Source: Chthoniobacteraceae bacterium
GTDB taxonomy: Bacteria > Verrucomicrobiota > Verrucomicrobiia > Chthoniobacterales > Chthoniobacteraceae
Length of the DNA: 23,912 nucleotides
Direction of reading: 5' to 3'
NCBI GenBank assembly: GCA_031409335.1
Contig: JANNWY010000209.1
Coordinates: 1 to 23,912 of the forward strand
Positions within the stretch are counted from its first letter, which is position 1. Each line of letters begins with the position of its first letter. Position numbers and translations under genes: made by a program. The notes under the pieces are model-generated. The model saw only the letters and a program-made list of their open reading frames with translations. It had not been told where the DNA came from and ran no database searches. This document shows, in pieces, positions 6,691 to 9,750 of the stretch.

Positions 6691-6706
6691 TGGCACGCGC
6701 GTTGCT
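6691..6706 (+). promoter_or_regulatory. sigma54 (-24/-12) promoter of the P-II gene
   Basis: TGGCAC-GCGCG-TTGCT matches the TGGCAC-N5-TTGCW consensus, 90 nt upstream of the P-II start. Confidence 0.85.
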
Positions 6707-6796
6707 AAACGTGCGGCGCGTCATTTTTCCCTGTCAAAAACGACGCGCCACCCACCCTCGCTGGCGCAATCCAGCGCCAATCACCCGACCATTTAC

Positions 6797-7135
6797 ATGA
6801 AAAAAATCGAAGCGATCATCAAGCCGTTCAAACTCGAAGAAGTGAAGGATGCCCTCGCCGAAATTGGCGTCGAAGGCATGACGGTGACCGAGGTGAAGGG
6901 CTTCGGGCGGCAGAAAGGCCACACGGAAATTTATCGCGGTTCGGAATACACGGTCGATTTTCTGCCGAAGGTGAAAATCGAAATCGTGATCTCGGATGCA
7001 GTAGCCGACAAGGCGGTTGCCGCGATCGTCGCCTCGGCGAAGACCGGGAAGATCGGGGATGGAAAAGTGTTCATCCTTTCCGTCGAGCAAGCGGTGCGGA
7101 TTCGGACGGAGGAAGTCGGCGACAAGGCGGTGTAG
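6797..7135 (+). CDS. glnB: Nitrogen regulatory protein P-II (GlnB/GlnK family)
   Basis: 112 aa; [21 protein letters not shown]-loop [16 protein letters not shown]. GlnB versus GlnK cannot be settled; no adjacent amtB. Confidence 0.97.
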
Positions 7136-7156
7136 GCCAAGATTCAAAAGGACGGG

Positions 7157-7999
7157 CTAGAAGGCATCGACGACGAGTGCCGTGGTGTTGTCGCGACCGC
7201 TGGATTCGACTGCGGCTTCGACGAGATGTTGCGCGGCGCGCTTTCCACTTGCGGCCACCTTTGACGGGCAAAGGTTTTCCAGCAGGAGATCATCGCGGCA
7301 GCCATCGATCACGCCGTCGGTGCAGAGCAGGAAACGGTCGCCCGGCTCGAACAGCACCGCGCCGACTTGCGGCGTGACGAACTGGTTCCCCGCGCCGAGC
7401 GCTTTTTGCAGGACGTTTCGCCGCGGATGATTGCGCGCTTCCCGCTCGTTGATCTTCCCATTTCGCAAGAGCCAGCCGACATGTGTGTCGTCCTCGGTGA
7501 TCTGCCGGATGCCGCCATCCCGCGCCGGCAGATAGTAAATCCGGCTGTCGCCGATGTGCGCGAAAAACATGCGCGCCGGCGTGAACCAGCACAGGCTCAG
7601 CGTCGCGCCCATGCCCGCGCATTCCTCGTAGCTTTGCCCGAGGAAAATGAGCGCGCGATGGATTTGATCGAAGAGCTCCGTGAGCACGTCGTCGATGCCC
7701 GCTTCGAGTCCCACGGCGGATTGGCGGTAAGAGCGCGGCAGCAGGCGCGTGACTTTTTCGACGGTGATCTGGCTCGCAAATTCCCCCGCCATCGCCCCGC
7801 CCATGCCGTCGCTGACCGCGAACACGCAATCTTCATGTTCCATGGAAGCCTCGCCAAATTTTCCGAGATGCCGCACTTCGTTCGCATCGAATTGCAGGCC
7901 GAGGAATGCGTCCTCGTTATTTTTGCGGACCTTGCCGCGATCCGTCCAGCCGGACCAGCGCAGGCATCGCGCTGGGGAAATTTGCCCGAGCTCGCTCAT
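7157..7999 (-). CDS. PP2C/PPM-family Ser/Thr protein phosphatase
   Basis: RKNNED, VSDGMGG, HIGDSRIY, LLCTDG, GRDNTT motifs. ATG at 7999 overlaps the upstream stop (ATGA). Confidence 0.93.
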   Translation of the reverse strand: MSELGQISPARCLRWSGWTDRGKVRKNNEDAFLGLQFDANEVRHLGKFGEASMEHEDCVFAVSDGMGGAMAGEFASQITVEKVTRLLPRSYRQSAVGLEAGIDDVLTELFDQIHRALIFLGQSYEECAGMGATLSLCWFTPARMFFAHIGDSRIYYLPARDGGIRQITEDDTHVGWLLRNGKINEREARNHPRRNVLQKALGAGNQFVTPQVGAVLFEPGDRFLLCTDGVIDGCRDDLLLENLCPSKVAASGKRAAQHLVEAAVESSGRDNTTALVVDAF

Positions 8000-8391
8000 G
8001 CGGGCGGGCTCTCGAAGCCGGGCAGGATCGTGGCAAACTCGAAGTCGATCAGGCAAAAACGTCCGTCCGTGTTGCGGTAGGTAACGTTGCGCATGTCCGC
8101 GTCCTCGTGGCGCACGCCATACGGTTCGAGTTCGGCGAAAAGCTCGCGCGTGCGCGCTTCATCGAGATGGTCCACACGGCTGCCGCAGTTTGAGGTCACG
8201 ATGCGGAGTTGCGATGCGTCGGCTTCGAGAAGTTTCGGGACGAACGCGCAGCCGCGCGCTTCGAGATGGCGCAGCACCCGCACCTCATTCGCGAACCGCT
8301 CGTCGGCTTTTGGGCCGCGGAAAATCTTCGTGACGCGGCCATCGTAGCCGACCCGGACAGTCGCGCGCAGGGTGTCTTTGACGACGGGCAT
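7996..8391 (-). CDS. Minimal protein-kinase-like protein (RIO/Bud32/Kdo-like fold), about 131 aa
   Basis: VTKIF (beta3 Lys), FANEVRVLRHL (alphaC Glu), VPKLL, RHEDADMRNV (HxD-x4-N catalytic loop), LIDFE (DFG-like). Start chosen at ATG 8391. Confidence 0.75.
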   Translation of the reverse strand: MPVVKDTLRATVRVGYDGRVTKIFRGPKADERFANEVRVLRHLEARGCAFVPKLLEADASQLRIVTSNCGSRVDHLDEARTRELFAELEPYGVRHEDADMRNVTYRNTDGRFCLIDFEFATILPGFESPPA

Positions 8392-8400
8392 TTGGGGAAA

Positions 8401-8526
8401 AGTTGAGGGTGGAAAGTTGGTTTGTTCGCCTGTCACACGTCACCGGACCGGGCGGCGGCAGCGATTTCTGAAAGAGCGTCTGCCATCGAAGCACGCCGCT
8501 CAACCCCCAACTCTAAACTCTCAACT
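8401..8526. repeat. Heptamer (CTCAACT-like) short repeats in inverted arrangement
   Basis: ctcaacc-cccaact-ctaaact-ctcaact at 8499-8526; degenerate complementary units agttgag-ggtggaa-agttggt at 8401-8421. Confidence 0.55.
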
Positions 8527-8533
8527 TTCCAAG

Positions 8534-8549
8534 TGGCATCGCCGTTGCT
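8534..8549 (+). promoter_or_regulatory. sigma54 (-24/-12) promoter of glutamine synthetase
   Basis: TGGCAT-CGCCG-TTGCT; shares the flanks (preceding G, following AAA) with the P-II promoter. Confidence 0.8.
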
Positions 8550-8659
8550 AAAGGTGCGCACTTGCCCCTAAAAAACGGGGGTTACAGAGTAACAAACACA
8601 AACCCAGCGGTCGAAAAAAGCGCACGCCGCTCAAAAACCAACACCACCACACCGACATC

Positions 8660-9685
8660 ATGGCGAAGTACAAACTGGAATACCTCTGGCTCGACGGCTA
8701 TACGCCCGTCCCGAATCTCCGAGGCAAAACCCAAATCAAAGAATTCAGCGGCTTTCCAAAGCTCGAAGAACTGCCCATGTGGGGCTTCGACGGCAGCTCC
8801 ACCCGCCAGGCCGAGGGCCACAGCTCGGATTGCATGCTCAAACCCGTCGCCGTCTTCCCGGATAGCACGAAAAAGAACGGCGCGCTCGTGATGTGCGAAG
8901 TCATGCTGCCCGACTGCACCACCCCGCACCCGACCAATACCCGCGCCACCATCCCCGACGATCCCGGCGCGTGGTTCGGCTTCGAGCAGGAGTATTTCCT
9001 CTACCAAAACGGCGTCCCGCTCGGCTTCCCGGAAGGCGGCGGCTTTCCACCACCACAGGGCAAATACTACACCGGCGTCGGCTACGACAATGTCGGCGAC
9101 ATCGCCCGCGAGATCGTGGACACGCACCTCGATCTCTGCCTCGACGCCGGCATCAATCACGAAGGCATCAACGCCGAAGTGGCCAAAGGCCAGTGGGAGT
9201 TCCAAATCTTCGGCAAAGGATCCAAGAACGCCGCCGACCAGATGTGGGTCGCCCGCTACCTGCTCAACCGGCTCTGCGAAAAATACGGCGTGATCGTGAA
9301 CTACCACTGCAAACCGCTCGGCATGGACGTGGACTGGAACGGCTCCGGGATGCACGCCAACTTCTCGACCGAGCACATGCGCTCGGTCGGTGGAAAGCCG
9401 TATTTCGAGGCGCTCATGGCCGCGTTCGACAAATACAAAAACGAGCACATCGCCGTGTACGGCCCGGACAATCACATGCGCCTCACTGGCCTCCACGAGA
9501 CGCAGTCGATCGACAAATTCAACTACGGCATCGCCAACCGCGGCGCGTCCGTGCGCGTCCCGCACAGCTTCGCGAACAACGGCTACAAAGGCTACCTCGA
9601 AGACCGTCGTCCGAATTCGCAGGGCGACCCCTACGCCATCGCCGGTCGCATCCTGCAAACGATCGCGACCGTGCCGACGAAGTAA
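8660..9685 (+). CDS. glnII: Glutamine synthetase type II
   Basis: 341 aa (GSII size); [71 protein letters not shown]. Confidence 0.95.
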
Positions 9686-9714
9686 TCGCGCGACGCTCCG
9701 TCGAACCAATCAAT

Positions 9715-9750
9715 ACGCCGTCCCGCCTTGTGCGGGGCGGCGTTTTTTTT
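9715..9750 (+). terminator. Rho-independent terminator of glnII
   Basis: acgccgtcccgc-cttgt-gcggggcggcgt stem-loop followed by a T run. Confidence 0.9.

Follow-up and report, generated by a model that had tools for sequence, protein, structure and literature searches.

The locus described here lies in a 23,912-nt stretch of DNA, referred to throughout as the window, which is contig JANNWY010000209.1 of a Chthoniobacteraceae bacterium (Verrucomicrobiota; assembly GCA_031409335.1) with a genome of 7.9 Mb. In it, a gene for a minimal protein-kinase-like protein and a gene for a PP2C-family phosphatase stand between the gene for the P-II protein and glnII, which encodes a type II glutamine synthetase (GSII; Table 1). 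The start of the PP2C gene overlaps the stop of the kinase gene as ATGA, and 21 nt separate the PP2C stop from that of the P-II gene. An alternative GTG start of the kinase gene at 8436 would give a protein of 146 amino acids (aa); homologues begin at the ATG methionine. The window contains two sigma54-type boxes against a mean of 0.08 in shuffled sequences (none of 100 shuffles gave two), and with a stricter pattern ten boxes were found across the 7.9-Mb genome, two of them at the present locus. The box pointing at glnII is conserved in 94 of 104 intergenic regions, and no box toward the kinase operon was found in any of the 104. An earlier note, made from the letters of this stretch, had described the genes, the ATGA overlap, the 21-nt gap, the P-II T-loop and the sigma54 boxes, all of which are present, and had proposed a writer/eraser pair acting on P-II or on GSII. 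The locus it singled out was the right one, but its emphasis fell on the wrong partner.

Table 1. Features of the kinase–PP2C–glnII locus, with positions in the window
Feature	Position	Strand	Remarks
Sigma54-type (-24/-12) box upstream of the P-II gene	6691..6706	+	consensus match only
P-II gene	6797-7135	+	112 aa; PF00543 match, E 4.5e-34
PP2C-family phosphatase gene	7157-7999	-	280 aa; PP2C_2 match, E 4.6e-16
Minimal protein-kinase-like gene	7996-8391	-	131 aa from ATG; APH match, E 4e-8
Sigma54-type box pointing at glnII	8534..8549	+	consensus match
Type II glutamine synthetase gene (GSII, glnII)	8660-9685	+	GlnII model score 363, cut-off 500
Intrinsic-terminator-like hairpin and T run, 3′ of glnII	9715-9750	+	

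The module formed by the kinase, the PP2C and GSII is real and widespread. Linkage was counted, using loci with enough flanking DNA, in three sets that overlap partly and in which kin are not independent: 80 close loci, 60 loci of a wider sample (from the 55 remaining kinase genomes of the phylum sample together with five relatives, some of the loci being cut by contig ends) and 80 metagenome loci. PP2C directly follows the kinase in 77/77 close, 57/59 wider and 57/58 metagenome loci, and GSII is the divergent neighbour in 58/76, 52/59 and 37/51, respectively; the neighbourhood survey that the earlier note had suggested did reveal a linkage to nitrogen genes, and it points toward glnII. Kinase and PP2C are fused into one protein in four of the 60 wider loci, all within one genus code, and a PP2C domain is carried by 12 of the 21 longer kinase representatives that were scanned. 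In one genome (G119; L239, L185) the PP2C gene is still divergent from one of the GSII copies, and the kinase gene sits on another contig with no PP2C beside it. A gene for a gamma-glutamyl cyclotransferase (GGACT) was also observed in 14 kinase loci of the wider set, the copy at L144:7202-7570 overlapping the stop of a kinase–PP2C fusion; it is possible that these genes represent a further link to glutamyl metabolism.

Glutamine synthetase (GS) is central to nitrogen uptake, and the one at the locus is the only PF00120 match in the host genome. Taking as type II those enzymes of about 340-370 aa that are nearest to Streptomyces GlnII and eukaryotic GS, it clearly falls in this type (4bax, E 2e-88; eukaryotic chains, E ≤1e-75; other GS chains, E ≥1e-7), while scoring below the cut-off of the GlnII model NF041605 (Table 1). 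Among 301 genomes of the phylum, the 56 that encode the kinase are exactly the 56 that encode a GSII of at least 71% identity; six further genomes, outside the class Verrucomicrobiia, have a GSII of 57-61% identity and no kinase match. In a sample of 221 genomes of the class, which overlaps the phylum set, 89 have both genes, 130 have neither, one has the kinase only and one has GSII only, the last with a gene split over contig ends. The distribution of GlnE, the adenylyltransferase/adenylyl-removase that acts on type I GS (GSI), is complementary. In the host genome no GlnE was found at 1e-10, the sole PF03710 match (E 2.3e-5) falling inside glnD, and among 70 hand-picked genomes GlnE is present in 2 of the 38 with the kinase as compared to 18 of the 32 that lack it. 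Both GlnE-bearing kinase genomes carry GSI as well as GSII. Of 54 genomes covered by both surveys, 20 have GlnE, and precisely these 20 show a GS match of 439-466 bits, which we call GSI-type from score and length. There thus appear to be two parallel modules, one of GSI with GlnE and one of GSII with the kinase and PP2C.

On balance we favor the view that the minimal kinase and its PP2C constitute a dedicated reversible phosphorylation switch on GSII, the counterpart of GlnE for GSI, and consider it rather probable. The computed basis for it consists of gene linkage, fusion, co-inheritance, complementarity with GlnE, intact catalytic motifs and a predicted dock; from these we infer phosphotransfer to GSII, its site, the direction of its effect and any control by P-II and GlnD. 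As with GlnE, which works together with P-II and GlnD, there would be a writer and an eraser for a GS, sometimes within one polypeptide, and inherited with the GS type. The enzymes are, however, unrelated, the nucleotidyltransferase domains of GlnE being absent here, a phosphoryl group rather than AMP would be transferred, the substrate would be GSII rather than GSI, and the kinase activity is a predicted one, so that the likeness to GlnE is one of working only. It could also be that a generic kinase/phosphatase operon has merely hitchhiked beside glnII, given that neighbors are inherited as blocks and that the sampled genomes are kin. We see only a very slim chance of this, since kinase and GSII occur together also where the genes are unlinked (e.g. 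G027, G031, G254 and G283), since several families have kinase-less members in which the close GSII is absent too, since GlnE shows the complementary pattern, and since the docking test presented below gave a positive result.

The kinase shows the features of the protein-kinase-like superfamily: a beta3 lysine (K22), an alphaC glutamate (E36), catalytic Asp and Asn (H95-x-D97, N102), a metal-binding Asp (D116-F-E118) and a kinase fold. K22, N102 and D116 are invariant and E36, H95 and D97 are kept in at least 90% of 98 aligned rows. In the structure model (predicted local distance difference test score, pLDDT, of 93.7) an N-lobe is followed by a single C-lobe helix, the catalytic loop and the DFE motif, and the chain then stops about 13 residues past DFE. 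All of the top 50 structural matches of the model are kinase folds, and the 131-aa kinase is shorter than any of these 50 listed. In fold comparison (VIA Z) it is tied between Rio2 (12.0; root-mean-square deviation, rmsd, 3.5; 120 aligned), ArkI (11.7; rmsd 3.0; 113 aligned) and Rio1 (11.3), followed by Bud32 (10.6) and NleH1 (9.0); a sequence search of the PDB with the kinase gave nothing better than E 0.049. It thus shares a reduced protein-kinase fold with ArkI/AQ578 (COG2112), Rio, Bud32 and the small kinases of OspG/NleH type. Its N-terminal loop reads K-D-T-x-R-A instead of the GxGxxG of Hanks-type kinases, and it lacks both the activation segment and C-lobe subdomains VIII-XI of the latter.

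The kinase belongs to a large family: of 8,000 candidates scored in a word-index search 7,990 match, and clustering at 50% leaves 474 representatives. The nearest named homologues are from Verrucomicrobiota, mostly with Chthoniobacterales-type labels, and a cluster look-up of 20 representatives returned a single organism label, Verrucomicrobiales. No homologue was found in 72,556 plasmids, in five GSII-bearing plasmid or chromid records of Alphaproteobacteria, or among 150 genomes from the phylum to which G336 belongs; the match of G336 itself sits on a 2.4-kb contig. Four loci with titles from outside Verrucomicrobiota (L073, L079, L080 and L105) have the whole or part of the triad with a kinase identity of 73-80%, and are probably mislabelled or misbinned.

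Rhizobia use a GSII that is 70-77% identical, apparently without the kinase, at least in the plasmid and chromid records that were searched, which counts against the proposed switch. The rhizobial-type GSII sequences (L306-L312) fall in the same clade as the kinase-linked GSII of Verrucomicrobiia, with support of 100/100 against the other GSII of the phylum. Nesting of the rhizobial sequences inside the kinase-linked ones was drawn in the free tree, but an approximately unbiased (AU) test does not reject a clade of kinase-linked GSII (p 0.39), and because of this we claim no donor and no order of events. In two rhizobial-type loci (L310 and L308) the divergent slot upstream of glnII is occupied by gstI or DUF2735. 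The arrangement of gstI, a regulator gene divergently upstream of a closely related glnII, is like that of the kinase gene, but GstI is a small protein unrelated to kinases and annotated as a translation inhibitor in the part of PMC3596328 that deals with it.

The occupation of this slot by a translation inhibitor raises the question of whether the kinase, too, could act on something other than a protein, i.e. whether it modifies an RNA, as ArkI does with tRNA, or a small molecule tied to GSII expression or activity. The top Foldseek match of the kinase is indeed the RNA kinase ArkI (E 1.7e-6, TM score 0.68), which counts against a protein substrate; the DFE metal-binding loop is common to both, and Pfam assigns the kinase to APH/Kdo. 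According to the sections of PMC9095486 concerned, however, ArkI is characterized, besides DFE, by an HGQ catalytic loop and a C-terminal YKR helix. The kinase instead has a loop of the form H-[DE]-D, with the canonical catalytic Asp and a downstream Asn, and no sequence past about residue 131, its chain ending before the YKR helix would begin. Its partner is a PP2C and not KptA, and it is predicted to dock on the GSII protein. We therefore regard a non-protein substrate as improbable.

The PP2C protein has the metal-binding motifs of its family (RxxNED, DGxGG, DG and DN), with R25, N28, E29, D30, D64, G65, D228, G229, D270 and N271 kept in at least 97% of 132 homologue rows, and a conserved insertion at about residues 33-57. 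Its score on the Stp1/IreP model (183) is under the cut-off of 230. Kinase and PP2C genes are combined in Hanks-type operons such as PknB/PstP and Stk1/Stp1 as well, and the best PDB match of the PP2C, judged by score, is mycobacterial PstP (E 1e-31). Unlike in those operons, the kinase is devoid of an activation segment, of the later C-lobe helices and of a membrane or sensor part, and it is associated with a single metabolic enzyme. Cyanobacterial PP2C structures are relatives of the PP2C too, among them 2j82 (E 1.6e-26), which we take to be tPphA, but by these scores it is not specifically nearer to them.

This relationship bears on the headline of the earlier note, namely that the pair phosphorylates and dephosphorylates P-II at Ser49, as in Synechococcus/Synechocystis, where PphA is the eraser. 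The parallels are a Ser49 T-loop, a PP2C-family phosphatase and a nitrogen context: the P-II T-loop at the locus reads I45-Y-R-G-S49-E-Y51, all four P-II genes of the host genome encode Ser49, as do the canonical P-II copies read elsewhere, and P-II abuts PP2C here and in 6/68 close and 6/37 metagenome loci. In the 60 wider-sample loci, however, no P-II gene was found, and the 27 of 80 close loci that do have P-II near the kinase show four layouts (abutting in 6, with amtB in between in 9, about 3 kb away without amtB in 2, and as a divergent paralogue beyond glnII in 10). We read these varied layouts as nitrogen-gene clustering, and the abutting arrangement may have arisen from the one with amtB when this gene was lost. 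The linkage to P-II is thus local, and the P-II gene is not part of the conserved unit. The ten divergent paralogues (L030, L032, L036, L037, L044, L050, L053, L054, L062 and L075) are situated about 4.0-4.5 kb upstream of the kinase and are 57-64% identical; their T-loops do not contain YRGSEY, so that neither Ser49 nor Tyr51 is conserved.

Nor does Ser49 correlate with the kinase. In 27 kinase-less genomes, where P-II often adjoins GSI, there are 55 P-II matches, and of the 31 that were read 30 have Ser49, which makes this residue the lineage default rather than a diagnostic feature. The absence of GlnD that one would expect from the cyanobacterial system was not observed either: glnD occurs in 75 of the 301 phylum genomes and in all but one of the 56 kinase genomes (55), and the host has a full-length copy in which the nucleotidyltransferase motif is kept. 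In Merrick's review (PMC4285133), as far as its treatment of the T-loop goes, Ser49 is described as conserved also in cyanobacteria that do not phosphorylate it, the kinase having been unknown at that time. The statement in the earlier note that the P-II kinase has not been identified should be qualified, as the relevant part of PMC10651672 proposes SpkB as a candidate, without in vitro proof. Across genomes it is GSII and not P-II that the kinase tracks. Because the P-II linkage is local, Ser49 does not follow the kinase and GlnD is present, phosphorylation of P-II Ser49 by this pair is quite unlikely, and judging from these sequence comparisons we reject it as the target. What stands of the proposed writer/eraser is a dedicated pair tied to nitrogen assimilation, with GSII, the second option of the note, as its likely target. 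By the features examined, the module falls outside the GlnE, Hanks, ArkI and cyanobacterial P-II systems, and the long search for the P-II kinase thereby loses a candidate that was tempting but had little in its support.

That GSII is the partner of the kinase is also suggested by structure prediction. A complex of the kinase with two copies of GSII, predicted from alignments restricted to kinase genomes, scored 0.73 (0.73, 0.71 and 0.77 in separate runs) as against 0.00 for the best of three controls; the mark applied is reached by 116 of 157 solved pairs as compared to 2 of 215 mismatched ones, though for the present case, with its own alignments and two-copy chain, these counts are only approximate. 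The runs agree in at least 83% of contacts, the partner pLDDT is at least 86, and PDB searches found no complex like it. On GSII the predicted interface comprises residues 261-266, 269-272, 284-285, 326, 330, 333 and 45-58, and the docking surface (E262, A265, R330) adjoins the glutamate flap (T276-S283). The model supports binding of the kinase to GSII.

Before folding, we had compared 116 GSII sequences from kinase genomes with 7 of rhizobial type, 72-77% identical, and 6 from kinase-less genomes of the phylum, partial and stop-containing rows having been dropped, and had found E262, L278 and R330 to be fixed in 116/116 of the former and absent from 7/7 rhizobial ones. Out of 185 conserved columns, E262 and R330 are the only two that differ in both kinase-less groups, and both are in the predicted interface (Fisher p 0.007); seven columns differ in rhizobia, four in the interface (p 0.001) and three in the adjoining flap, bearing in mind that the p-values take columns as independent and that the rhizobial rows are one clade. 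Both residues were present in all of 30 further GSII loci, which overlap partly with the first set.

Putting these elements together, the kinase would dock on the GSII surface around E262, A265 and R330, with the glutamate flap and the 44-58 loop next to it, and would phosphorylate a Ser or Thr near the entrance of the active site. Candidate sites are T276, T281 and S283 in the flap, or S46-T48, S55 and S56. Phosphorylation would most likely lower GSII activity when ammonium is plentiful, and the PP2C would remove the phosphate from GSII; the direction of control, like any input from P-II and GlnD, is suggested by analogy with GlnE.

Several observations weigh against this, in addition to the rhizobial GSII and the ArkI match mentioned above. 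GSII is non-adjacent in 18 of 76 close loci, and co-inheritance of neighbours can arise by block transfer as well. Among 28 conserved Ser, Thr and Tyr columns of GSII none is specific to the kinase-linked enzymes, which is why no single site is put forward. The kinase contacts GSII through residues 14-18, 68-80 and 105-112, i.e. outside the catalytic loop (95-102) and DFE, and the model therefore depicts a docking pose and not a substrate in the active site. On the kinase side, the interface shows no higher conservation than the remainder of the protein (0.75 vs 0.76, p 0.53), and in comparison with the six kinase-less phylum GSII the enrichment over the whole GSII interface, 5/16 vs 26/169, is not significant (p 0.11). 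One could imagine from the position of the contacts, from the lack of a specific Ser/Thr and from the presence of Rio2, Rio1 and Bud32 among the best folds that the kinase is a stoichiometric GSII-binding regulator, in which case the kinase would phosphorylate itself or some other protein bound to it, or would be a Rio/Bud32-like ATPase, the PP2C would reset it, and GSII would be controlled by binding rather than by covalent modification. Although this deserves more attention than the other alternatives, we hold it to be unlikely, because the PP2C, whose metal ligands are intact, is paired with the kinase almost without exception or fused to it, which is most simply understood as a writer and an eraser, and because the dock lies beside the flap that is phosphorylated in mammalian GS. 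The docking face of the kinase, a post-hinge helix and the beta7-beta8 hairpin, presumably corresponds to the docking groove of mitogen-activated protein kinases, and such a match would fit docking of a substrate away from the active site.

For mammalian GS, an enzyme of the same type, phosphorylation of T301 in the flap by PKA lowers activity, as stated in the part of PMC6536897 concerned with this site. The invariant T276 at the start of the flap of the kinase-linked GSII matches T301, as judged by the motif RLTGxHET in eukaryotic GS rows, the mammalian row itself not being among those displayed, and the predicted dock is beside it. In contrast to PKA, a general eukaryotic kinase, the kinase studied here is a dedicated bacterial one of 131 aa with its own PP2C. 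The same section of PMC6536897 describes the mammalian sites as not found in prokaryotic GS, E. coli having been used for comparison.

GSII is described, in the passage of PMC5127829 that touches on the subject, as not regulated by adenylylation. Since GSII would escape this control, its quick shut-off in bacteria constitutes a gap, and in a large class of soil and freshwater bacteria GSII is frequently the sole or principal GS, with GlnE missing. The present analysis names a candidate writer and a candidate eraser, the surface on which the kinase would dock and a few candidate sites. In listings of the open-access literature no description of a kinase/PP2C–GSII pair was found, and the module is probably new to the literature. 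If the reading of a phosphorylation switch on GSII is true, it would provide a dedicated bacterial glutamine synthetase kinase and would show how little of a kinase suffices when a single substrate is served. More tentatively, and with somewhat less than even confidence in the scheme as a whole, one may envisage in Verrucomicrobiia a second cascade of GS control, in which a kinase without most of its C-lobe binds to the GSII ring and adds phosphate to the glutamate flap, the PP2C, sometimes fused to it, reverses this, the nitrogen signal comes from P-II and GlnD as in the case of GlnE, and rhizobial GSII is a relative without the kinase and without the docking residues.

Other parts of the window contain genes of separate interest. 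At 70-2994 and 2991-3923 (+ strand) two coupled genes encode a protein of 974 aa, which has TSP3-like repeats and near its C-terminus a stretch resembling a HEIGH zinc motif, and a protein of 310 aa with a hydrophobic C-terminus; both have only weak Pfam matches. In the region 10489-11760 (- strand) there are fragments of two apparently broken genes, one for a planctomycete-type cytochrome c and one for an IS200-like (Y1) transposase. At 18245-19089 (+ strand) a small open reading frame with no Pfam match precedes a gene seemingly spread over two reading frames, a pair in which we presume a resemblance to nucleotidyltransferase toxin–antitoxin pairs. Finally, the gene at 20041-22929 (+ strand) joins an Mrr-like endonuclease to a ResIII/helicase domain and has a repetitive C-terminal tail; its product may serve in restriction or defence.

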